A DNA stretch of 50,867 nt from an uncultured Gammaproteobacteria bacterium (GCA_964646925.1 CAZYIC010000002.1:1-50867), one strand, 5' to 3'. Positions 7,074 through 30,637 are shown, numbered from the stretch's first letter. Translations and numbers: made by a program. The notes: generated by a model from the sequence alone, not told the origin.

Positions 7074-7102
7074 ATTCTATGACAAAAGATATACTTTGTC
7101 AA
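7074..7102 (-). promoter_or_regulatory. putative sigma70-type promoter with palindromic operator for brnTA
   Basis: On the minus strand: TTGACA (7097-7102), a 17-nt spacer, then TAGAAT (7074-7079), which lies 5 nt before the GTG start. The spacer is the palindrome TGACAAA-N8-TTTGTCA (7080-7101). Confidence 0.4.
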
Positions 7103-7134
7103 TATATCAATAAACTGACCGTTTCGGTAATAAC

Positions 7135-7266: not shown

Positions 7267-9432
7267 ATGGACAAAGTTTACAATCACAAAGATGTTGAGG
7301 AGAGGATTTATAAAGAATGGGAAGAGAAGGGGTATTTCAAAGCAAATCCAGAATCGAATAGAAAACCATATTCGCTTTTGATGCCGCCGCCAAACCTAAC
7401 GGGAGAATTGCATCTTGGTCACGCTATGCAGCATTCGGTTCTAGATGCTTTGGCTCGCTTTAAAAGAATGCAGGGATTTGATGTGTTGCTTTTGCCCGGA
7501 GTTGATCATGCCGGAATCCAGTTCGAAGCAACATTAAACAGGTTGCTTTCTAAGGAAGGGTTAACCAAGGGAAAACTGGGAAGAGAAAAATGGCTAGAAA
7601 GAGCTTGGCAATTCCGAGACGAAATTTATAAATCTGTCCATAATACATGGAAAATATTCGGGCTTTCTGCAGATTGGTCTAAGGAAGTATTTACGCTAGA
7701 GCCGAAAGTTCAAAAAGCAGTCTTTGGAGAGTTTAAAAGCTTTTGGGATAATGACTTAATTTATAAAGGTGCCTATATTGTTCAGTGGTGTCCCAAAGAT
7801 CAAACAGCAATAGAAGATTTGGAAATGGAGTATCAAGAAAAAAAAGAGAAGCTCTATTATGTTAAATACGAGATATTACAAGAGCCGGGAGAATATATTG
7901 TTATTGCAACCGCCAGACCAGAGACGATATTTGCGGATACTGGTATAGCAACATATTTAAAACATCCTAAATTTTCAAAATATATTGGAATGCAAGCCAT
8001 TAATCCATTAACACAAGGATATGTTAATGTTTTTGAAGATGAACGAGTCGATAAAAATTTTGGTACGGGAGCCTTAAAAATTACACCAGGACATGACATC
8101 TTGGACTATCAAATAGGAAAAGACAAAGGCTTACCGATGATGCATGCAATAGATAAAACAGGTCGAATGACAAATATTGCACAAATAATCTCTGCGAGCG
8201 GAGAATATTCGTTAGATTTAACGGGAATGAAGGTCTCTGAAGCAAGGCAGGCAGCATGTCAGGCATTGGAGAAGTTTGGTTCAATAGAAAGAGTGGAAGA
8301 ATATAGTCATTCGGTTCCCGTATGTGAGAGATGCAAGACTGTTGTTGAGCCCTTAATTTCCGAAGAGTGGTTTGTAAAAATGAGACCATTGGCAGATAAA
8401 GCTCTTAAAAATATTAACAAAATTAAATTTGCGCCTAAAAATTATGAAAAAATTATTGGAGATTGGTTGAAAGAAATTCATGATTGGTCTATTTCAAGAT
8501 CTCTTTGGTGGGGACACAGAATCCCTGTTTGGTATTGCGAGAAATGCAACCCCGCTCATCAGGTGGGGAAAAATAAGGACATGGCGGTATCAATGGAAGC
8601 GCCTAAGCAAAATTGTAAAACATGCAGCGGCAATTTGTGGGCGCAGGAAGAGCAGGTTCTTGATACGTGGTTTTCTTCTGGAATGTGGCCGCTTTCAACT
8701 TTGGGTTGGCCGGACAAAACAAGAGAGCTTGAAAAATATTATCCATGGAATTTCGAAATTACCGCACCCGAAATTAAATTCCTTTGGATTGCAAGAATGA
8801 TAATGTTAGGACTTTGGTTTAATGACAAAATTCCGTTTAAAAATATGTTTTTCCACGGCATGATAAGAGACAAGCAGGGTAGAAAATTCTCCAAATCTCT
8901 CGGGAACGGTATTGACCCCAATGAATTAAGGGATCAGTGGGGAACAGACGCAGTAAGGATGGCATTATATACATATGCCGTTCCGGGGAGAGATGCTCTT
9001 GTCTCAAGACAGTTAATGGATGAGAGATGCAAAAATTTTAGAAATTTTTCTACAAAGCTTAGAAACATCTCGAGATTCATTTTTAAACTAAAGCCGGAAA
9101 AAACAAATGAAAAGTCCGATTATTCACATTCGGAAGACTTGGAGATAATGCGGAAATTGAATAAGGCTATCGAAAAAATGAACAAAGGATTAAATAATTT
9201 CGAGCTGCACCTTGCGGGAGATGAAATATATTCCTTTATTTGGCATGAATTTGCAGATAAATATGTTGAGCAGTCAAAAAAGAGAAGAGCAGCTGCGCAG
9301 CCGGTTTTAGAAAAAGTCTTCAGACAAATTCTTATCATGCTCCATCCGCTTATGCCTTTTACCACAGAGGAGATTTATCAAACTCTGCCAAATCATAAAG
9401 AATCAATCATGATGGAGAAGTGGCCCAAATAA
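7267..9432 (+). CDS. valS: valyl-tRNA synthetase (short form, no C-terminal coiled coil)
   Basis: 721 aa with PPPNLTGELHLGHA (HIGH), PGVDHAGIQ and KFSKSLGN (KMSKS). Confidence 0.85.
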   Translation: MDKVYNHKDVEERIYKEWEEKGYFKANPESNRKPYSLLMPPPNLTGELHLGHAMQHSVLDALARFKRMQGFDVLLLPGVDHAGIQFEATLNRLLSKEGLTKGKLGREKWLERAWQFRDEIYKSVHNTWKIFGLSADWSKEVFTLEPKVQKAVFGEFKSFWDNDLIYKGAYIVQWCPKDQTAIEDLEMEYQEKKEKLYYVKYEILQEPGEYIVIATARPETIFADTGIATYLKHPKFSKYIGMQAINPLTQGYVNVFEDERVDKNFGTGALKITPGHDILDYQIGKDKGLPMMHAIDKTGRMTNIAQIISASGEYSLDLTGMKVSEARQAACQALEKFGSIERVEEYSHSVPVCERCKTVVEPLISEEWFVKMRPLADKALKNINKIKFAPKNYEKIIGDWLKEIHDWSISRSLWWGHRIPVWYCEKCNPAHQVGKNKDMAVSMEAPKQNCKTCSGNLWAQEEQVLDTWFSSGMWPLSTLGWPDKTRELEKYYPWNFEITAPEIKFLWIARMIMLGLWFNDKIPFKNMFFHGMIRDKQGRKFSKSLGNGIDPNELRDQWGTDAVRMALYTYAVPGRDALVSRQLMDERCKNFRNFSTKLRNISRFIFKLKPEKTNEKSDYSHSEDLEIMRKLNKAIEKMNKGLNNFELHLAGDEIYSFIWHEFADKYVEQSKKRRAAAQPVLEKVFRQILIMLHPLMPFTTEEIYQTLPNHKESIMMEKWPK

Positions 9433-10757: not shown

Positions 10758-10820
10758 AAAGGTTATTGTACCTTATTTACGGGATTAATACAACCGCCGT
10801 GTTATAATAAATCTGATTTT

Positions 10821-11297
10821 ATGAAGATACTCGGAATTGATCCGGGATATGCCAGGGTTGGGTGGGCAACAATAACAAGTAACAATTCACAATTAACAGT
10901 TAACAATTATGGGTGCATAGAAACTTCTAAGAATACAGATTCTCAAGAGCGGTTAGTTGATGTTTATAAGCAAGTTTGCGCATTGATTAAAAAATATAAA
11001 CCTGACGCTTTAGCGATAGAAGAACTTTTTTTTACAAATAATGCCAAAACAGCTTTCAAAGTTGGGGAGGCAAGAGGAGTCATAACTTTGGCCGGAGCTA
11101 TCCAAAAAATCCCTGTTTTTTCATATACGCCTTTGCAGGTAAAAGTTGCAGTTACGGGGTACGGTAACGCAGACAAGACTCAGGTTGGGAGAATGATAAA
11201 GGTAATCCTTAAATTAAAAGAAATGCCAAAGTTAGATGACACAGTTGATGCAATCGCAGTCGCATTAACGCACGCCTTTACAAATAAATTTAAATAA
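10821..11297 (+). CDS. ruvC: crossover junction endodeoxyribonuclease RuvC
   Basis: MKILGIDPGYARVGWA... followed by ALAIEELFF and DAIAVALTHA motifs. I place the start at ATG 10821 rather than the ORF-track start at 10701. Confidence 0.8.
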   Translation: MKILGIDPGYARVGWATITSNNSQLTVNNYGCIETSKNTDSQERLVDVYKQVCALIKKYKPDALAIEELFFTNNAKTAFKVGEARGVITLAGAIQKIPVFSYTPLQVKVAVTGYGNADKTQVGRMIKVILKLKEMPKLDDTVDAIAVALTHAFTNKFK

Positions 11298-11299
11298 TT

Positions 11300-11722
11300 T
11301 TAAATTTCTCCGCGTTCTTTTTTTAAGAGAAAAATATCAGGAGTTACGATTTTTATATTTTTGAAATTTTTTAAATCCAATAAATCTCTGTCGCCGGTTA
11401 TAATGTAATCACATTTACCTTCGAGAGCTGCTTCCAAAACCCGATTATCATCTTTATCTCTAGAGATTGAAAGAGATTTTCTTGGTTTGACTATTTTGAA
11501 TTTCTCTTTAATTTGTCTTTCGATTAAAGTAAAGCTATATGCTAATTTTGGAAACTTTTTACCTATTACATCTTCAAGTTCTGCCAGAAGTATTTGTGAA
11601 GTAATTGCTTCAATTTTGTCATCCAAAATAAGATTTAATATTTCTCTTGGTTTGCCTCCGAAGCCTATACCTGAAATTAGAATGTTGGTATCAAGAATTA
11701 CTTTAATCGGATTTGCGGCCAT
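11300..11722 (-). CDS. PIN-domain toxin (TIGR00305-like)
   Basis: 140 aa with VILDTNILISG ... DDNRVLEAALEGKCDYIITGDRDLL. The C-terminal KKERGEI is encoded by repeat copy A (11300-11326). Confidence 0.7.
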   Translation of the reverse strand: MAANPIKVILDTNILISGIGFGGKPREILNLILDDKIEAITSQILLAELEDVIGKKFPKLAYSFTLIERQIKEKFKIVKPRKSLSISRDKDDNRVLEAALEGKCDYIITGDRDLLDLKNFKNIKIVTPDIFLLKKERGEI

Positions 11723-11960
11723 GTCTATATTTATACACTATTTCATTAACTTCTTCTTCATTTTTGATTCCCATATCCTTCATCGCTTTTTCTCCAGCCT
11801 TAAAAATCTGATTCCATTTCTCCCGCCTATTTAAGTAAATTCTTAGAGCTTCTCGAATAAGCTCAGATCTGTTTCTATATTCTTCTCTGGCCTGTTCATC
11901 TACTTTTTTAACTAGTTCTCTTGGAAGGGAGATGTTGAACGTTTGCGTATTCATATACAA
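11703..11960 (-). CDS. ribbon-helix-helix (CopG/Arc) antitoxin
   Basis: 85 aa with FNISLPRELVKKVDEQAREEYRNRSELIREALRIYL. Overlaps the PIN gene by 20 nt. The start may instead be the third-codon ATG at 11954. Confidence 0.65.
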   Translation of the reverse strand: MYMNTQTFNISLPRELVKKVDEQAREEYRNRSELIREALRIYLNRREKWNQIFKAGEKAMKDMGIKNEEEVNEIVYKYRHGRKSD

Positions 11961-12005
11961 GCATTGTATATATCTTGTATCTCTTTGTCAAGAGGCTAAA
12001 TTTAA

Positions 12006-12095
12006 CTAAATCTCTCCTCGTTCTTTTTTGCGCTGCTTTGGGGTTTCGTCAGGACATCTGTAATCATAGCCGAGCCTAAAGGAGCGAAAAAGCAC
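12006..12095 (-). pseudogene. remnant of the cupin gene 3' end (copy B)
   Basis: The minus strand reads VLFRSFRLGYDYRCPDETPKQRKKERGEI*. The C-terminus of CDS 14426-14866 is YRLEDDYKRPDETPQQRKKERGEI*. No start codon and no upstream cupin body. Confidence 0.7.
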
Positions 12096-12113
12096 AGAAG
12101 ATTTCGAAAAATT

Positions 12114-12902
12114 TTATGTCCCTTTGGGATATAGGATTTTAAAATGTTTTATGCGATCATCAAGCCGGTCGCTAATAAATCCAATTCCTTGTGGGTTTTT
12201 AAGGCCAAACTGATCTTTGTTGGCCATCATGGTGATTCCTCCTACCGTAAATCCAGGCGCCTCTTTTTTCCCCAAAGAGTGTTCCTTATATTTTTCACAA
12301 AATCTAGAGAGAAGTATATCGGCCTCCTGCGCAAATTCTGTCTTAAGCAAGCCTTCAGGAGTCCATTTTTCAGTGTTCCAATAAAAACCAAAGGGATTTC
12401 CCCATCTGCCTGCATGCCTGCGTGTTGGCACACGAAATCTATGGTCAACATCGATCCTTTGCTCATCATTGAGGTAAAAATCCAGGAACTTCACAGTTCT
12501 GATTCCGGGGTGTCCTCTTAAGCTTGGGTAATCCTGTCCTTGCAAAATTACAGAGAGAACCAATCTTGGCGGATGCAGAGTTTTAACATGCGATATTTCA
12601 CGATAGGTGCCCTTATCTGTATGTATTTCCTTGTCATAATAATAAGCTTTTTCTGCGTGAATCATTACTGTTGGGAATATCCTCTCAACCAGTGGAGCTT
12701 TTTCTATTAGAATACCAGCTATAACTAAGCTATTAAGCTCTCTATATTTTTCATCTGCCCTTTGAATTTCGTCTCTTATTTTTCCTTCTTCCTCTTTCTT
12801 GGATTTTAATATTTGTTCCTGTTCTGCTTCGTATAGTTCTACGGACGTTCTTAGTGATTCCGGTTGTTCTTCTTTCATAGTTTGACCTCTTGTCTCAAGC
12901 AT
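12114..12902 (-). CDS. hypothetical protein (coiled-coil N-terminus)
   Basis: 262-aa ORF with no motif I recognise. Divergent from the MerR gene. Confidence 0.4.
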   Translation of the reverse strand: MLETRGQTMKEEQPESLRTSVELYEAEQEQILKSKKEEEGKIRDEIQRADEKYRELNSLVIAGILIEKAPLVERIFPTVMIHAEKAYYYDKEIHTDKGTYREISHVKTLHPPRLVLSVILQGQDYPSLRGHPGIRTVKFLDFYLNDEQRIDVDHRFRVPTRRHAGRWGNPFGFYWNTEKWTPEGLLKTEFAQEADILLSRFCEKYKEHSLGKKEAPGFTVGGITMMANKDQFGLKNPQGIGFISDRLDDRIKHFKILYPKGT

Positions 12903-12905
12903 AAG

Positions 12906-12939
12906 TTGCTTTAGGCTTATAGAAGTAGTATAATATACT
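12906..12939 (+). promoter_or_regulatory. possible MerR-type promoter with 19-bp spacer and palindrome
   Basis: TTGCTT (12906-12911), a 19-nt spacer, then TAATAT (12931-12936). The palindrome AGTATA-A-TATACT (12927-12939) overlaps the -10 box. Confidence 0.3.
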
Positions 12940-12953
12940 TATACGTTACGTAT

Positions 12954-13760
12954 ATGTCAAGTATGTCTTTAACAGTTGCGGAATTTGCGAGAGTATGTCA
13001 GGTTACGCCTCGCACGATCCGCTGGTATCAGCAAAAAGGCCTAATAACTCCTATAAAAGTAGACGAGTGGAATAAATATGCTTATTTTGCCCCGGAGCAG
13101 TCCTTATTGGTTTTTCAAATTAAATTATTACAGCAAGTTGGTCTTCCCTTAAGGGAAATAAGAACTAAATTAAGCAATAGTCAACCATCTCTAGATAAAG
13201 AATTGAAAAGGTTGGATGAATTTATTAAACAGAAGCAGAAAGAAATGGAACTGTTGAAGGAGATTAACTCTATTATTTCTTTAAATAAGTTTAATTTGAG
13301 GGAAGAAACAGCCGGTCCATACAAATTATTTTGCTATCGTATCGAAAAAGGGGATTATTCTAAATTAGATGCATATATTAATGAACTTAGAAGAGTAGCG
13401 GAAAGTGTTAAATTAAAGGTGCTCGATAAAGAAATCACATTTTATCTTGATCCAGAGCTTAAATATAAACCTAAGAATTCTAATTTGGAAGTTGCCTTAA
13501 TAATTTCAGGGCAGCCAAAATTTGGCTTACCTAAGTTGTCCAATAATTATTATTTTAGAGATTTTTTACCAACAAAAGCTTTGACTTTTAATTTTAGAGG
13601 TCCGTCTAATTATCTCTCTTTAGTCTACAATAAGATAGACAAATACGTTAAAGAGAAGGAAATACGAATAAAATCACCTGTTTTTGAAACATATCTTAAG
13701 AATGCTATAAATACTGGTTCTCCTTACGATTACATAACGAAAATAGCCTATCCCATTTGA
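12954..13760 (+). CDS. MerR-family transcriptional regulator with a GyrI-like effector domain
   Basis: 268 aa. N-terminal LTVAEFARVCQVTPRTIRWYQQKGLITP (MerR HTH), then a coiled coil and a ~150-aa C-terminal domain. Confidence 0.7.
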   Translation: MSSMSLTVAEFARVCQVTPRTIRWYQQKGLITPIKVDEWNKYAYFAPEQSLLVFQIKLLQQVGLPLREIRTKLSNSQPSLDKELKRLDEFIKQKQKEMELLKEINSIISLNKFNLREETAGPYKLFCYRIEKGDYSKLDAYINELRRVAESVKLKVLDKEITFYLDPELKYKPKNSNLEVALIISGQPKFGLPKLSNNYYFRDFLPTKALTFNFRGPSNYLSLVYNKIDKYVKEKEIRIKSPVFETYLKNAINTGSPYDYITKIAYPI

Positions 13761-13788
13761 TCCAGAAACAGTTGAAGGTTAGTGCTTT

Positions 13789-13824
13789 CTAAATTTCTCC
13801 ACGGTCTTTTTTATGCTGCTTAGG
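13789..13824 (-). pseudogene. remnant of the cupin gene 3' end (copy C)
   Basis: The minus strand reads PKQHKKDRGEI*. It overlaps the stop codon of the PGI-like gene in another frame. Confidence 0.6.
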
Positions 13825-14422
13825 ATTTTAACTTTTGGGCATATTCTTTTGGAGTAAGCCATTCGGGCTGCGCAGCATATCTATAATTATGGTTTTTAAC
13901 CAATGCCGGTTTCCCGCTTTCTTCAATTAAATAATATGCAAAACCCCTGAGCTTTTTTATTGGTTCGTAATCAGCGTGTCCCGGTAAAGAAACCGGATCA
14001 GCTTCTGCAAAGTTAACGGGTGAATCATCAGACGTAACGAACCAAACTTTGCCAACATTTACAGCCAGATGGCCGGTACCTGAGGGTATAAATACGCTAT
14101 TTCCTGTCTTTACGGTTATAGCATAAAAAGATTCAATTTCATCATCGATCGGATTGCCAGATTGATCTTTTTTCCTATTTTGCAAAAGAATTACTCCTTC
14201 TCCTGCTATTACATGATATGTTTCATCCAAATGACCCACATGATAATGACCATAAGTTTTAATATATTCTCCGCCGACTGTGCCTGTTTCCCAAACTGTA
14301 ATATTAGTTTTGTCAACTCCGCCGCGGATCATGTAATAATGTACTTCAGGACCTTTTGCGTCAGGATACATTAGAACTTCCTTCATTTTTTCATGCGGTC
14401 TGTCTGCAAATGGTCTTAACAT
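13820..14422 (-). CDS. cupin-type glucose-6-phosphate isomerase-like protein
   Basis: 200 aa with TYGHYHVGHLDETYHVIAGEGVILLQ ... IPSGTGHLAVNVG, which resembles archaeal cupin PGI (TKGHFH...EVY..L.G.G). Starts 3 nt after the upstream cupin gene. Confidence 0.5.
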   Translation of the reverse strand: MLRPFADRPHEKMKEVLMYPDAKGPEVHYYMIRGGVDKTNITVWETGTVGGEYIKTYGHYHVGHLDETYHVIAGEGVILLQNRKKDQSGNPIDDEIESFYAITVKTGNSVFIPSGTGHLAVNVGKVWFVTSDDSPVNFAEADPVSLPGHADYEPIKKLRGFAYYLIEESGKPALVKNHNYRYAAQPEWLTPKEYAQKLKS

Positions 14423-14425
14423 AAA

Positions 14426-14866
14426 TTAAATTTCCCCTCTTTCTTTTTTTCTTTGCTGTGGAGTTTCATCAGGGCGTTTGTAGTCATCTTCAAGTCGATA
14501 GGTTGTTCCCATTTCGGGTGTTGAAACTTCAATAATATCGCAATCCGTAATTCCCATAAGCCTGTGTCTTTGGCCGATTTCTGTAGTAAAACCTTGTCCT
14601 TCTTGAAGTTCTGTTTCAATAAGTTCGCCTTTATTATTATCCCAAATTACTTTTGCGTGACCTTTTATAATAAGCCAGCTTTCTTGTTTTTTGTCATGAA
14701 TTTGAAGACTAAGTCTTTTTCCTGCATCGATATGTAAAAGTTTTCCCATGTATGGCTTGTCTTCTTTTACCCAATGAATTTCATAACCCCATGGCTTATC
14801 AATTTTTTTTGCGTAAGAATTGTTACTAAATTTAGTTTTATCAAATTGGTTAGAATCAAAAGCCAT
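14426..14866 (-). CDS. cupin protein, mannose-6-phosphate isomerase type II C-terminal-like
   Basis: 146 aa with KPWGYEIHW...GKLLHIDAGKRLSLQIHDKKQESWLIIKGHAKV. Its 3' end is the source sequence of repeats A-C. Confidence 0.6.
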   Translation of the reverse strand: MAFDSNQFDKTKFSNNSYAKKIDKPWGYEIHWVKEDKPYMGKLLHIDAGKRLSLQIHDKKQESWLIIKGHAKVIWDNNKGELIETELQEGQGFTTEIGQRHRLMGITDCDIIEVSTPEMGTTYRLEDDYKRPDETPQQRKKERGEI

Positions 14867-14932: not shown

Positions 14933-15721
14933 ATGGTAATGGAGAGATTGGGTGCCGCAAGAAGGCTTCCTGAAAATCAAGATCCAACAAAACAATTTGC
15001 AATTGAACACGCAGAAAAAATGCTTGTTGATGCTGGCGTAAAAGATCCAGGAACGCTTGTTGCAACTTCCGTTGAAAAACCAACTCCAAAAATTGGAGAG
15101 CAATCACAAGATAAAGTAGGAAAAGTTGTTGTGGAATACAATTCTCAACCTTTGACTCCTGAACTTGTTAATAAAACTTGGCAAACTCTCTGGACAGAAT
15201 GGGGGAAAAGAGTTGGTCAGACATTTGAAATTCCACAGTGTGATCGAACCTCTGAAGAATTAGCTCAACTTAAAAAAGAAAATAAAGCAGTACTTCTTAT
15301 TCCCGACAATGTAGATTTGATTATGCTTGGCAAAATATTTCCCCAAATGCAGAGTCGGGCTGTATCAGAAGGAACAACGGTAACTGAATCAAGCAAAGGT
15401 GGAAGTATTGATACTGAAATGGATCTTGACTCTCCAAATAGAGATACAACTGAATTTCAAGCAAAGGATTTCCTTAAGCAGAATGGAAGAAACGGACAGA
15501 GATTAAGAACTTACATTATTGGCTCACAACTTAGCAAGTTATTAACTGGTCACTATTTTGACGAAAATGCATATTCTCGTTTGCCTGGTTCCCGTAATGA
15601 GGCCCGCATGGTGCTTGCTCACTTCCATTCGGATGGCGGCTTGCATGTCCGCTGGCATCTGGGTCCACTGCATCACGATCCGGACATGGGTTTTCGTTCC
15701 GAGGGAGTTAGAAAAGCTTAA
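14933..15721 (+). CDS. DGR variable (target) protein
   Basis: 262 aa. The C-terminal 40 aa (GSRNEARMVLAHFHSDGGLHVRWHLGPLHHDPDMGFRSE) are encoded by the VR. No obvious signal peptide. Confidence 0.85.
   Translation: MVMERLGAARRLPENQDPTKQFAIEHAEKMLVDAGVKDPGTLVATSVEKPTPKIGEQSQDKVGKVVVEYNSQPLTPELVNKTWQTLWTEWGKRVGQTFEIPQCDRTSEELAQLKKENKAVLLIPDNVDLIMLGKIFPQMQSRAVSEGTTVTESSKGGSIDTEMDLDSPNRDTTEFQAKDFLKQNGRNGQRLRTYIIGSQLSKLLTGHYFDENAYSRLPGSRNEARMVLAHFHSDGGLHVRWHLGPLHHDPDMGFRSEGVRKA
15587..15704 (+). repeat. DGR variable repeat (VR)
   Basis: 118 bp, 101/118 identical to 16020-16137. Every difference corresponds to an A in the other copy. Confidence 0.9.
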
Positions 15722-16019
15722 TCTTTTGATCCTTTGTCCTCTTTTGCATCTTTGAACTTTCCGTTTTTTTCTGATAGAGTAATAATTAAAGTAGGTTTAT
15801 GTTCCCAAGAGTATGCTTTTGAGACACCGAAATTATTGTTTTTCAAACATTTGCCGGAATTTCTATAAACTACGGTTTTAGAAAGAGTTGCAAAAGAAAA
15901 GCAAGATACTCCTTGTCTTTTGCTTGCGAAGGTCTCGCCACAGGCGAGTGCTTCCAAATAAAATACAATGTCTTGAGAAATCAGGCCGTGGTGAAAAAGA
16001 TGGCATAAGACAAAAAATA

Positions 16020-16137
16020 GGTTCCCGTAATGAGGACAACATGGTGAATGCTAACTTCAATTCGGATGGCAACTTGAATGTCAACTGGAATCTGAATCCA
16101 CAGAATCACGATCCGGACATGGGTTTTCGTTCCGAGG
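16020..16137 (+). repeat. DGR template repeat (TR)
   Basis: The non-coding copy. In the target frame it reads as 10 AAY (Asn) codons plus GAC and CAG at the 12 variable positions. The 3' 31 bp are invariant between TR and VR. Confidence 0.9.
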
Positions 16138-16155
16138 TAGAATCTTGCTTTTTCT

Positions 16156-16557
16156 TTATTGTTTTAATGATTTTCTCCATCCTCCAAGCATTCTGCCGAT
16201 TTCTTGGAGGAGTTGAATTAATTGGATATATTTTTTATTATCTAAAGCTTGTATATCTTTTGCAAGTCTTATCAGTATCCGAAGCATATCTAAGGACACT
16301 ATAGATTTTTCAATAAACGGTAATTTTTTCTCCTGGGAGTTCATTCCTGCTGTAATTGTTAGCTCAAAAATCGTGAGAGTAAGCCTGTCTATCTTTTGTC
16401 CTAGACTGTGTTGATCTTTCTTAGGGAAAAGTTTCAGATATTGGTACAATAATTTATAGAAGTCATATAGCTTTTGGAATAGCGGTATGTTAAACTGGTT
16501 ATCTGTTCTGTTCTGTTCTGTTCTGTTCTGTGAGGTGGGATTGTGATTTTGACTCAT
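16156..16557 (-). CDS. avd: Avd-like four-helix-bundle accessory protein
   Basis: Related to the 23S-IVS / four-helix-bundle family (LYDFYKLLYQYLKLFPKKDQHSLGQKIDRLTLTIFELT...RILIRLA). ATG at 16557; the ORF track extends to a TTG at 16572. On the opposite strand to TR and RT. Confidence 0.7.
   Translation of the reverse strand: MSQNHNPTSQNRTEQNRTDNQFNIPLFQKLYDFYKLLYQYLKLFPKKDQHSLGQKIDRLTLTIFELTITAGMNSQEKKLPFIEKSIVSLDMLRILIRLAKDIQALDNKKYIQLIQLLQEIGRMLGGWRKSLKQ
16503..16532. repeat. pentanucleotide repeat (CTGTT)5 plus one CTGTG unit
   Basis: Read directly from the sequence. Lies in avd codons 9-18 (QNRTEQNRT) and ends 1 nt before a GAGGTG Shine-Dalgarno-like box upstream of the RT start at GTG 16543. 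Confidence 0.95.
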
Positions 16558-17547
16558 ACACTCTATTCCCAAATTACCTCAATTGAGCATTTATTGCAAG
16601 CTTTCGATGAATTCAAAAAAGGCAAAAGAAGTAAAAAAGACGTGCAGTTTTTCGAAAGATTTTTAGAGGATAATCTTTTTGATTTGCATAGAAGGTTAGA
16701 AGCAAAAATCTATAAGCATTCTTCCTATACAGCTTTTAATATTTATGATCCTAAATTTCGCCATATTCATAAAGCAAAAGTTGCGGATAGAATAATGCAT
16801 CATGCCATAGTTTCAATAATTGAGCCAATTTTTGATAAAACATTTATCTATGATTCATATTCTTGCCGCAAAGAAAAGGGAACGCATAAAGCAGTTAAGA
16901 GATTATTTTATTTTGTAAGAAAAGTCAGCAGAAATTATACAGGAGATTGCTTTGCTCTGAAGCTTGATATTCGAAAATTCTTTGAAAATGTTGATCATCA
17001 GATTTTACTTAACCAGATAAAAAAGAGGATAGGCGATGATGACTTGCTATGGCTTCTTAAAAATATTTTGCAGAGTTTTTCAAAAGATAAAGGTATGCCT
17101 ATAGGAAATCTGACAAGTCAGGTGTTTGCAAATATTTACCTAAATGAATTGGATCAATTCATGAAACATGATCTAAAGATTAGATACTACCTTAGGTATT
17201 CAGATGACTTTGTTATTTTATCTCAAGACATTAATTATTTGAAAGGACTAATAAGGGGAATAGAAATATTTCTAAAAGAAAATTTGAAGCTATCTTTGCA
17301 TGAAGATAAGATCATAATCCGAAAATATACACAAGGAATTGATTTCTTAGGATATATTGTTCTGCCTCATTATGTTTTGCCGAGAACTAAGACGAAAAAG
17401 AGAATATTTAAGAAATTAAAGGAGAAAGTTGGTTCGGAAAATTTTGATCAGTCCTTGCAGTCATATTTAGGATACTTAGGATATGCGAATGCGTTTAGGC
17501 TTGCAGAGAAACTAAAGAATGAGATTTGGCTATGGAAAAAAGAATGA
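16543..17547 (+). CDS. DGR-type reverse transcriptase
   Basis: 334 aa with motif 4 PIGNLTSQVFANIYLNELD (the SQ signature of DGR RTs), the catalytic box RYSDDFVIL and ALKLDIRKFFENVDH. GTG start. Confidence 0.9.
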   Translation: MILTHTLYSQITSIEHLLQAFDEFKKGKRSKKDVQFFERFLEDNLFDLHRRLEAKIYKHSSYTAFNIYDPKFRHIHKAKVADRIMHHAIVSIIEPIFDKTFIYDSYSCRKEKGTHKAVKRLFYFVRKVSRNYTGDCFALKLDIRKFFENVDHQILLNQIKKRIGDDDLLWLLKNILQSFSKDKGMPIGNLTSQVFANIYLNELDQFMKHDLKIRYYLRYSDDFVILSQDINYLKGLIRGIEIFLKENLKLSLHEDKIIIRKYTQGIDFLGYIVLPHYVLPRTKTKKRIFKKLKEKVGSENFDQSLQSYLGYLGYANAFRLAEKLKNEIWLWKKE

Positions 17548-29063: not shown

Positions 29064-29765
29064 ATGAAAAACAAAGTTATCCTTGCTGTTGGGGCGCATC
29101 CGGATGACATGGATTTCGGAGTGTCGGGAAGTATTGCCAAATGGGTCAAAGAGGGTGCAACAGCATATTATTTAATTTGTACAGACGGAAGCAGGGGTTC
29201 TGAAGACCCTAAAATGACGCACAAGCGTTTGGCGGAAATAAGAAAAAAAGAGCAGATTGATGCGGCAAAAGTTTTGGGAGTTAAAAAAGTTTTCTTTTTA
29301 AATCACACCGACACACAGCTTGTTTGCGATCTTACCCTGAAAGAAGAAATAGTAAGAATTATTCGAACAGTAAAACCGAACATTGTTGTCACAATGGATC
29401 CGACTTTTTATTTTTCAAAGGATCGGGGTTTTGTCAATCATACGGATCACCGGGCTGCAGCATTAGCAGCCATGGATGCTGTATTTCCTTTGTCCCGGGA
29501 CAGGCTGACTTTTCCGGAGCATGAAAAACAAGGACTAAAGCCGCATAAAGTTGAAGAACTTTTATTTATTTCTTTTTACAAAAAAGATTTTATTGTGGAT
29601 ATTTCAGAGACTTTCGACAAAAAGATTAAAGCTTTGGCAATGCACGCAAGCCAATTCGCAGATTTTCCCGCAGTTGAAAAAAGAGTAAGGGCAAGAGCAA
29701 AGAATTTAGGAAGATCTAGGGGTTATAAATTCGCGGAAAACTTCGTGAGAATAAAGCTCGTCTAG
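29064..29765 (+). CDS. PIG-L/LmbE family deacetylase
   Basis: VILAVGAHPDDMDFG and HTDHRAAA motifs. Start taken as ATG 29064. Confidence 0.75.
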   Translation: MKNKVILAVGAHPDDMDFGVSGSIAKWVKEGATAYYLICTDGSRGSEDPKMTHKRLAEIRKKEQIDAAKVLGVKKVFFLNHTDTQLVCDLTLKEEIVRIIRTVKPNIVVTMDPTFYFSKDRGFVNHTDHRAAALAAMDAVFPLSRDRLTFPEHEKQGLKPHKVEELLFISFYKKDFIVDISETFDKKIKALAMHASQFADFPAVEKRVRARAKNLGRSRGYKFAENFVRIKLV

Positions 29766-30637
29766 AGTTCGGTGAGGATGCCGTTTTCTTTGGCTCTTTC
29801 TTTTACGTATTCCAAATATCTTTCGGTTGTGGAAAGTCTTTTGTGCCCTAAAACCTTAGAAATAATTGTAAGCGATAGGCCATGCTTTAGGTGATGGGCA
29901 ACAAAGGTATGGCGAAGGTCATTGACTTTTGCATTTTTTATTTCAGCGAGTCTAAAATATCTTTCAACTGCAGTTCTAATATTCCTTATTAAAAATGGTT
30001 TTCCCGATTTTGTTATAAATAAGTGTTCCGAATTTCCGCCAGCTGGCTGATGATTAGGTCTTACCTTCAAGTAGCTGTTCAGAGCTTCCTGAGCTCTTTT
30101 ATTTAAGGGAACTATTCTTTCTGCGTGTTTTTCCTGTGCAGCTATATGCAGTCCTTCCTTTTGGATGTCTGAGATTTTAAGATTTGCCAATTCTCCAATT
30201 CTAATTCCTGTCTGAAGTAAAAGTTCGATAATGGCAAACATTCTCATATCATTCCTTGCTGCGTCCCTTAAAGCTCGATACTCCGTAGGAGTCAAAATTC
30301 GAGGAGCTGCCAGTTGATATCTCGGATGCGCAACCAGAAGAGACGGATCATCCGTAATATATTCATTTATTTTCAAAAATCTATAAAAAGTTCGCGTAGA
30401 ATTAAGCTTTCTTGAGATTGATTTTGGAGTATATCCGTTTTTGGACATTTTTGCCAAGAAAGACTCCAAATCATTCTTTGTTGCATCGTGAATGTGATTT
30501 TTGGACAAATCTTCCAAAAATTTAACTAACTGTTCGATATCTTTACTGTATGCTACAATAGTTGAAGCCGAATGCCTATTTTCACTTAAATATTTTTTAA
30601 ATTCCCGATGCGCATCCCTGATATTTATTGCTTTCAT
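29762..30637 (-). CDS. tyrosine site-specific recombinase, XerC/XerD-like
   Basis: 291 aa with an N-terminal SAM-like domain and a C-terminal RHTFVAHHL...LGHKRLSTTERYLEY (the catalytic R..H..R..Y pattern). Confidence 0.8.
   Translation of the reverse strand: MKAINIRDAHREFKKYLSENRHSASTIVAYSKDIEQLVKFLEDLSKNHIHDATKNDLESFLAKMSKNGYTPKSISRKLNSTRTFYRFLKINEYITDDPSLLVAHPRYQLAAPRILTPTEYRALRDAARNDMRMFAIIELLLQTGIRIGELANLKISDIQKEGLHIAAQEKHAERIVPLNKRAQEALNSYLKVRPNHQPAGGNSEHLFITKSGKPFLIRNIRTAVERYFRLAEIKNAKVNDLRHTFVAHHLKHGLSLTIISKVLGHKRLSTTERYLEYVKERAKENGILTEL

Follow-up and report, generated by a model that had tools for sequence, protein, structure and literature searches.

Copies of a cupin gene end and the genes between them

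The window analysed here is a stretch of 50,867 bases, with coordinates counted from its first letter, from a Levybacteria-like bacterium (Microgenomates, candidate phyla radiation), as judged from the sources of its cupin homologues and from related genomes. We describe an array on the minus strand at 11.3-14.9 kb. Its target is the gene of a 146-residue cupin of the mannose-6-phosphate-isomerase C-terminal type (14426..14866, minus strand; Pfam PF01050, E = 1.6e-11), and it is bounded by the convergent downstream neighbour ruvC (10818..11297, plus strand; Pfam PF02075, E = 9e-48, and synteny). Between these two genes lie small gene cassettes separated by displaced copies of the cupin gene's own 3' end. 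This insertion array, proposed in an earlier note made from the sequence alone, is real and well resolved.

A core of 23 nucleotides (nt), AAAAAAGAACGAGGAGAAATTTA, finds four matches in the 50,867 bases, with one or two mismatches each and all on the minus strand; in 100 dinucleotide-preserving shuffles, none contained any match. Copy D (14426-14515, minus strand; core match at 14427-14449) is the current functional 3' end of the cupin gene (..YRLEDDYKRPDETPQQRKKERGEI*). Copy C (13789-13824, minus strand; two mismatches in the core) is a displaced end of 36 nt that reads PKQHKKDRGEI*, copy B (12006-12095, minus strand) is a displaced end of about 76-90 nt that reads FRLGYDYRCPDETPKQRKKERGEI*, and copy A (11300-11326, minus strand; one mismatch in the core) is a remnant of 27 nt that reads KKERGEI*. 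All four stand at the positions and in the reading frames given by the earlier note, and copy A does form the C-terminus of a PIN toxin, of which it supplies the last eight codons and the stop. Copy B was also recovered, at 12007-12082, by an nhmmer profile search based on 88 functional 3' ends of cupin genes (E = 3e-11). Copies D and B share 72% identity across 86 nt, and copies C and B 83% over 36 nt, the latter two having in common the rare AAGCAGC (PKQ). Copy B is non-coding, being without a start codon and out of frame with the neighbouring gene unk262, and is at most 70% identical to any functional cupin end; it is a decaying pseudogene fragment. The remnants are of unequal length between cassettes (about 27 to 90 nt, with upstream limits from -27 to about -90).

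The repeated sequence has an ordinary origin. Among the 3534 homologues of the cupin, the best 120 are 71-90% identical to it, and nearly all of these share the C-terminus RPDETPxQRKKERGEx*, which is the usual, strongly conserved end of this protein across the candidate phyla radiation; the repeat is therefore the normal, very conserved end of the cupin gene. The gene itself is intact and full length in the window.

The three units delimited by the copies have the contents that the earlier note assigned to them, according to their Pfam matches, and of the six proteins that the array encodes none is a recombinase. Cassette 1, next to the target, consists of a PGI-like cupin of 200 residues (13820..14422, minus strand; Pfam PF06560), whose start codon lies 3 nt past the cupin stop (TAAtttATG). 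Cassette 2 is a divergent pair composed of a MerR-family regulator with a GyrI-like effector domain (12954..13760, plus strand; Pfam PF13411 and PF06445) and of unk262, an orphan protein of 262 residues (12114..12902, minus strand). The 51 nt between them (12903-12953) include a TTGACA box and a palindrome-rich stretch, a combination typical of MerR-type promoters. Cassette 3 combines an RHH antitoxin (11703..11960, minus strand; Pfam PF01402; promoter/operator at about 11961-12005) with a PIN_3 toxin (11300..11722, minus strand; Pfam PF13470), the native C-terminus of which is replaced by copy A. The two genes are small, adjacent and overlapping at their ends (11703-11722), as expected of a VapBC-like type II toxin-antitoxin pair, and copy B lies directly upstream of the RHH promoter.

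The protein unk262 has no Pfam or NCBIfam match and no recombinase signature. Only three relatives were found among 1.84 billion cluster representatives, always in a divergent pair with a MerR/GyrI-like regulator. Its AlphaFold2 model (a long helix and a beta sheet) reached a mean confidence score (pLDDT) of 66 and found no PDB match at E <= 0.001. The idea that unk262 could be a hidden recombinase was set aside on these results, which are uninformative rather than negative.

The cupin-ruvC interval in related genomes

For comparison we collected 80 genome loci, 80 metagenome loci and several Logan or ENA contigs (labelled L001 and so on), with a syntenic set of 29 loci that have both cupin and ruvC. 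The backbone order in relatives is ruvB-ruvA and cupin facing ruvC, followed by L25 and ValRS. When an empty site is defined as a cupin-to-ruvC gap of at most 30 nt, 14 of the 29 loci are empty (2-30 nt apart) and the others are variously filled, so that the alleles with no cassettes or fewer, which the earlier note had suggested looking for, do exist. Occupied sites contain purD alone, RHH-PIN with purD, PGI alone, PGI with RHH-PIN and purD, or small orphan open reading frames (ORFs); across the relatives the gap contents include purD, RHH-PIN, PGI, ORF161, ORF110, Fic and other genes, and this variety makes the cupin-ruvC gap a hot spot of gene-content variation. At the empty sites of L001 (3525-3545), L089, L091, L118 and L129, the facing coding sequences of cupin and ruvC overlap or leave only 0-2 nt between them, so any insertion between them must rebuild a gene end. 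In many relatives (e.g. L081, L010, L152, L032 and L083) purD (GARS, minus strand) stands between the cassette zone and ruvC; at the window site it does not, and copy A meets ruvC directly (11297-11300).

Extra copies of the cupin end were sought in 162 loci with peptide regular expressions and a position-weight matrix. The matrix scan was noisy owing to the purine-rich core, and we upheld only the copies of L120, L152, the same-strain contigs L082/L164, L163, L288 and, weakly, L108 and L010. Displaced ends occur in relatives at ORF161 (L108), at Fic (L288) and at RHH-PIN (L120, L152, L285, L010 and L288), and altogether five cassette types are flanked by cupin-end remnants, in at least eight genomes.

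Copy A is the oldest of the displaced ends. In the window the ruvC stop codon (11297) comes 2 nt after the end of PIN and copy A, and the junction ..AAAAAAGAACGCGGAGAAATTTAA|AATTATTTAAA.. agrees in layout, base for base, with the empty-site junction of L086, a match which argues that copy A is the original cupin end, still forming the ancestral cupin/ruvC junction. Native PIN homologues end in ..TPDxFLxxx*, and cupin-end residues terminate PIN only in the window, P0126 and P0129. The second cupin end behind PIN is of graded length in relatives: at least 48 nt after the PIN stop codon in L120, 42 nt as an in-frame fusion (..TFLDETPEQRKKERGEN*) in L152, 24-27 nt, fused, in the window and P0126, a decayed core in L010, perhaps 9 nt in L032, and none in L078 and L081. 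This gradation reflects one RHH-PIN insertion of old date, which has since been worn down from upstream to a different extent in each lineage. In the closest relative with a fused PIN end (P0126, ..LEKESGEV*), a further minus-strand orphan ORF of 145 residues (L285, 740-1177) stands between the A-like remnant and ruvC; no cupin or ruvC remnant is detectable beside this ORF.

Copy B, the RHH promoter and RHH-PIN are together collinear with a functional cupin end followed by RHH-PIN in L081 (70% over 737 nt), L152 (78% over 747 nt) and L285 (78% over 731 nt). This collinearity identifies copy B as the cupin end that was functional after the RHH-PIN insertion. The same joint, TAG-TTTAATTT, precedes RHH-PIN in every case (window copy B, L120, L152 and L285), and the window antitoxin is 89% identical to that of L010 and 74% to that of L152. 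The donor affinity of copies B, C and A was sought by comparison with functional ends, copy B being too decayed (at most 70%) to assign.

The MerR-unk262 pair recurs in L163 and, more distantly, in L290. L163 is a contig of 1805 nt from another sample which carries the closest unk262 relative (81%) and is collinear with window positions 13812-12024 (83% over 1793 nt), from inside copy C through MerR and unk262 into copy B. It begins in ..TPEQRKKERGEA* and finishes in ..EDDYKRPDETPEQRKK, and its ends overlap by 22 nt. Such an overlap is what we would expect if an exact repeat of 38 nt flanked the cassette in an assembly with k = 31, and it fits this better than a circle. In both cases (window copy C and L163) TAG-AAA(A/G)CAC precedes the pair. 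In L290, a 45%-identical pair of MerR and unk271 stands in an unrelated context and without cupin ends, which indicates that elsewhere these are ordinary chromosomal genes.

The PGI gene arrived last. Copy C has its upstream edge at the PGI stop codon, with which it overlaps, and is collinear with the left end of L163; its start exactly at that stop, and its PKQ and 83% identity in common with copy B, fit copy C as the functional end before the arrival of PGI. Set against L138, the joint at the PGI stop (AAAATCC|TAAGCAGC) leaves room for a microhomology of 2-5 nt at most. Cupin and PGI are a frequent adjacent pair in the candidate phyla radiation, and the operon-like junction TAA/TAG-ttt-ATG is common to L006, L032 and the window. 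The window PGI shares 85% identity with those of the clade-II loci L006 and L032 (88% for the latter two compared), whereas the backbone proteins of the window are only 61-77% identical to clade II (78-93% within clade II), and no PGI was found in the clade-I relatives examined (L081, L086, L087, L010, L152 and L108). A PGI nearly as similar as within clade II, on a backbone so far apart, implies horizontal acquisition, and the cassette is a piece of a cupin-PGI operon acquired in this way. Leaving aside the same strain (L082), the 3' ends closest to copy D are those of the PGI-bearing L006 and L094 (86% over 90 nt), and copy D has PQQ in common with L006 and L032; it probably came with the PGI gene.

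Two relatives extend the pattern to other cassettes. In L108, the ORF161 cassette is accompanied by a new end, ERGEI*, and the displaced remnant abutting ruvC reads ..KKERRKTT*, the two differing by an indel; the displaced end resembles the ..ETT*/..KTT* ends at the empty sites L001 and L115, and exact sharing between new and displaced ends is limited to a block of 13 nt, CAAAAAAGAACGC. L288 has two cupin-end remnants, a decayed one after PIN and one of 70 nt abutting ruvC. It also contains, between unk177 and Fic, a 36-nt copy of the ruvC 3' end (VALTHAFTKKF; 7077-7122, minus strand, versus 8422-8460), identical at 35 of 36 positions (97%) and separated from the functional ruvC by Fic and the 70-nt cupin-end remnant. 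This ruvC-end copy is the mirror image of the cupin scars, in unrelated sequence. No intact cupin gene was found in L288 within the 12 kb fetched. Some Levybacteria (L286, 3808-7019; L288, 1735-8267) have a ruvA-ruvC interval without cupin, and such intervals carry genes for a bacterial-type PGI (bact-PGI_C), a HAD hydrolase, RHH-PIN, a peptidase S51, NYN or Fic instead. From these gene contents, the ruvA-ruvC interval appears to be a swap zone for sugar isomerases and toxin-antitoxin genes.

The cupin target gene itself seems to have been exchanged between lineages, since the cupins of L152 and L010 conflict with the backbone phylogeny. That of L152 (1253-1693) is only 61-69% identical to all others, while its RuvA, RuvB, RuvC and L25 show 79-97% identity with their counterparts in clade-I relatives, and that of L010 (8001-8420) is closer to clade II. 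In the window cupin, a mosaic test with few informative sites gave agreement with clade I as far as nt 342 and with clade II at nt 409; of the informative sites in the last 100 nt, one sides with clade II and one with clade I, so only one supports a breakpoint there.

The other flank of the cupin is also occupied in the window. A complete diversity-generating retroelement (DGR) lies between cupin and ruvA (14933-17547), with a target gene (14933-15721; variable region at about 15588-15705), a template region (about 16018-16137), a bAvd accessory gene (16156-16572, minus strand) and a reverse transcriptase (16543-17547). The approximately 20 differences between template and variable region all fall at template adenines. 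In most relatives cupin and ruvA are only about 10-100 nt apart, so that both flanks of the cupin are insertion hot spots.

Taken together, the empty sites, the collinearity of junctions A, B and C with relatives and the five remnant-flanked cassette types in at least eight genomes support serial insertion with replacement ends and outward displacement, as deduced from sequence comparison. The proposals of the earlier note on this point held up: elements entered the gene end repeatedly, as indicated by the empty sites, the serial addition of cassettes and the ends linked to them in relatives; each brought a replacement end, as indicated by the constant joints before RHH-PIN and MerR-unk262 and by the two different ends of L108; and old ends moved outward and decayed, while copy A still forms the junction with ruvC.

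Insertion mechanism and competing explanations

The earlier note had remarked that no integrase lies inside the array, and this is confirmed: no recombinase is encoded at 10.8-15.2 kb, and the Xer-like gene at 29762-30637, of XerC/D type and 15 kb from the array, is the only tyrosine recombinase of the window. The cupin-ruvC gap contains no integrase or integrase fragment in some 35 related loci (for L081 and L285-L289, by their gene tables and Pfam marks), and a phmmer comparison of the window's Xer-type recombinase with the ORFs up to 4 kb downstream of cupin, in about 160 loci, found none that resembles it (best E 0.63), serine recombinases not having been searched exhaustively. A scan of viral contigs for the end sequence gave no match to a 24-nt pattern; a 19-nt pattern gave at least 120 low-complexity chance matches, which were discarded.

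With moderate confidence, evenly poised between acceptance and doubt, we read the locus as a cupin/ruvC hot spot that received three serial modules through homology-guided insertion, without any cassette-encoded integrase. Three foreign modules entered the last 30-90 nt of cupin in turn: the RHH-PIN toxin-antitoxin displaced copy A, the MerR-type regulator and the 262-residue protein then copy B, and the PGI-like cupin copy C, which left copy D as the present end. With each module came a copy of the cupin 3' end that took over as the functional one, the resident end moving downstream to decay. In the mechanism that we consider most likely, DNA of a related donor (part of its chromosome, or an excised circle with one end copy) would pair with the resident end. 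Fixation could proceed by one homologous crossover combined with one illegitimate or short-homology joint, or by a Campbell-type single crossover. Once flanked by end copies, a cassette might be lost through recombination between the repeats or spread to relatives via the conserved flanks. Survivorship may also shape the record: as convergent stop codons abut or overlap in the empty state, both gene ends must remain intact, and only insertions with a complete replacement end would be viable.

Homology-guided insertion is favoured by the absence of an integrase, by the varying remnants, by the lack of hairpins, by the operon-like and horizontally acquired PGI, by the conflicting cupins of L152 and L010, and by the ruvC remnant of L288. 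The last is, in our reading, the most telling case, since the scar is of the same type but affects ruvC, which is unrelated in sequence and flanks the hot spot opposite cupin; the PGI start, 3 nt past the cupin stop, marks a piece of a donor operon, not an element with arm sites. Several points weigh against this reading. At least five unrelated cassettes sit at the same few dozen bases, as a site-specific system would give. Some duplications are short and apparently recent (38 nt exact in L163, 35/36 in L288, 13 nt exact in L108), and such lengths are at or below the range that RecA-type recombination handles efficiently. A joint inside the anchoring homology, which the duplication needs, is not the textbook outcome of homology-facilitated illegitimate recombination, and neither a donor nor a circular intermediate was observed in the sequences compared. 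A trans-acting recombinase encoded outside the 50-kb window is a serious rival.

Such site-specific accretion would treat the cupin 3' end as attB and the cassettes as elements, or descendants of elements, with an attP copy, a tyrosine or serine recombinase acting from elsewhere or from elements since decayed, and gene-proximal integrations building the array. We consider it possible, though rather unlikely. It accounts well for the direct repeats of the target 3' end that flank every cassette and restore the gene, for the shared use of one site by unrelated cassettes and for the existence of empty sites; the 13-nt block of L108 resembles a crossover core, the short recent-looking duplications of L163 and L288 argue for a dedicated enzyme acting in trans, L163 can be read as an excised form, and the whole agrees with published accretion of cis-mobilizable and integrative mobilizable elements (PMC5704250) and with tycheposon islands with partial tRNAs (10.1101/2020.12.28.424599). 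Against it stand the lack of an integrase in the related loci, upstream remnant limits that differ between cassettes, a PGI start so close to the cupin stop that it leaves no room for arm sites, and the equivalent remnant of an unrelated gene end in ruvC; the overlap of the L163 ends is moreover not the k-1 overlap of a circular contig, if the assembly used k = 31. The core itself has no obvious dyad symmetry, as judged by eye, and none of the four copies forms a hairpin on either strand (DNA-fold z-scores -1.1 to +1.7). The att-like scars of a site-specific recombinase and the integron-like array that the earlier note had evoked are not supported by these observations, and the copies as att sites are unproven and, on balance, not favoured.

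The same folding result bears on an integron-like array or Xer-dependent modules, in which the end copies would be attC-like or dif-like and used by an integron integrase or by the XerC/D-like protein of the window. Small cassettes without integrase, each followed by a copy of one sequence, and an Xer-type gene in the window do recall such systems, but that protein scores 69 bits on the integron-integrase model TIGR02249 (cut-off 265 bits) and best against XerD/XerC, no 11-6-11 dyad was seen by eye, and the cassettes differ in orientation and are equipped with promoters of their own. From one side of the array to the other GC skew stays positive, without a sign switch, so the site is not a replication terminus or dif. 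We rejected this explanation as very improbable, there being no IntI and no attC folds. The copies might also be remnants of former tandem cupin paralogues or of a duplicated segment, all but the last 30-90 nt being deleted and nothing inserted. Their single orientation and their truncation on the upstream side only would suit this, but none of the relatives has tandem cupins while 14 have an empty site, the cassettes are mutually unrelated and have a patchy distribution, the phylogeny of PGI marks it as foreign, L290 has the MerR-unk262 pair in another, unrelated setting, and in several genomes a given end goes together with the cassette to its right; local duplication is extremely improbable. 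Chance likeness of A/T-rich gene ends, which the earlier note had named as a possible refutation, has a negligible probability and is rejected: the core is purine-rich and of low complexity, and loose patterns match many unrelated sequences, but four matches were observed where no shuffle had even one, copy B matches the functional-end profile, and relatives show clear homology of position. In view of the adjacent DGR reverse transcriptase, reverse transcription or a transposase was also considered as the source of a target-site duplication, and was rejected: the duplicated lengths differ between cassettes, the ends of L108 differ by an indel, and MerR-unk262 has divergent promoters.

Relation to known systems and biological meaning

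The closest precedent is the tandem accretion of integrative and conjugative elements (ICE), integrative mobilizable elements (IME) and cis-mobilizable elements (CIME) at the 3' end of protein-coding or tRNA genes, e.g. ICESt1/ICESt3 at fda of Streptococcus thermophilus and streptococcal IMEs (PMC5704250). Alike are the flanking direct repeats of the target 3' end, the gene restored by incoming DNA, the older elements and ends pushed away from the gene, the persistence of integrase-less members, with toxin-antitoxin modules among them, and the empty target sites in relatives (14/29 here). The present array differs in that no member or related locus among about 35 has an integrase, that the cassettes comprise one or two genes only (0.6-1.8 kb), one of them a native-operon fragment, that remnant lengths vary and that a second, unrelated gene end (ruvC) is scarred too. 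The array follows a known accretion pattern, but without the recombinase that defines it. A further difference is the host, a candidate-phyla-radiation bacterium, for which we know of no conjugation system.

The tycheposon-built genomic islands of Prochlorococcus, with a tRNA target and elements that carry tyrosine recombinases (Hackl et al., bioRxiv 10.1101/2020.12.28.424599), resemble the locus in their streamlined genome, in directional growth beside a conserved target, in partial target copies that separate integrations and in cargo mostly without mobility genes; here, in contrast, insertion is into the end of a protein-coding gene, and no recombinase turned up. In the minimal mobile elements of Neisseria, different whole-gene cassettes lie between conserved flanks and are presumably exchanged, without mobility genes, when imported DNA recombines by homology in these flanks (Saunders and Snyder 2002, in the account of PMC3787668). 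The cupin-ruvC interval corresponds to their definition, as a variable cassette region between conserved genes in close relatives, and a similar exchange may take place here, but serial duplicated 3' ends are not described there, whereas here the scars record the insertion order. Homology-facilitated illegitimate recombination in natural transformation, as defined in PMC3240628, yields mainly insertions with deletion of recipient DNA. It has in common with the proposed mechanism one end anchored by homology (here cupin or ruvC) and the other joined without long homology, and would explain how segments of a donor chromosome are gained without an integrase; its standard products do not include a short duplication at the anchor end, and natural transformation of this host is presumed. 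Transformation-driven duplication via alternative pairing of repeats is a further precedent (PMC3784515). Integron arrays, finally, also consist of ordered small integrase-less cassettes, each followed by a recombination-site-like copy, beside a fixed entry point, but here there is no IntI and there are no attC hairpins, the cassettes have promoters and mixed orientation, and the repeat is a piece of coding sequence.

To our knowledge, the mobile elements and the routes of gene gain of candidate-phyla-radiation bacteria are poorly known, their genomes being tiny and containing few recognisable integrases. We advance, tentatively and as a doubtful generalisation, that the ends of very conserved genes may serve these bacteria as portable recombination sites: a cassette with a short end copy could leave its place by excision, pass to other lineages and enter the same gene there, using only host recombination or a trans-acting recombinase, and cargo could accumulate in an integron-like order without a cassette integrase, the scars recording that order.

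The locus provides a dated and ordered record of three acquisitions at one site, with every intermediate state present in relatives. A practical consequence concerns annotation: a short orphan piece of a gene end, or an unexpected C-terminal tail like the KKERGEI of the PIN toxin, can be the footprint of an insertion. If a trans-acting recombinase were responsible, the 23-nt core and the set of cassettes would define its substrate. If it is true that no dedicated integrase is needed, streamlined and probably naturally transformable bacteria would be able to build small islands using conserved gene ends as landing pads.

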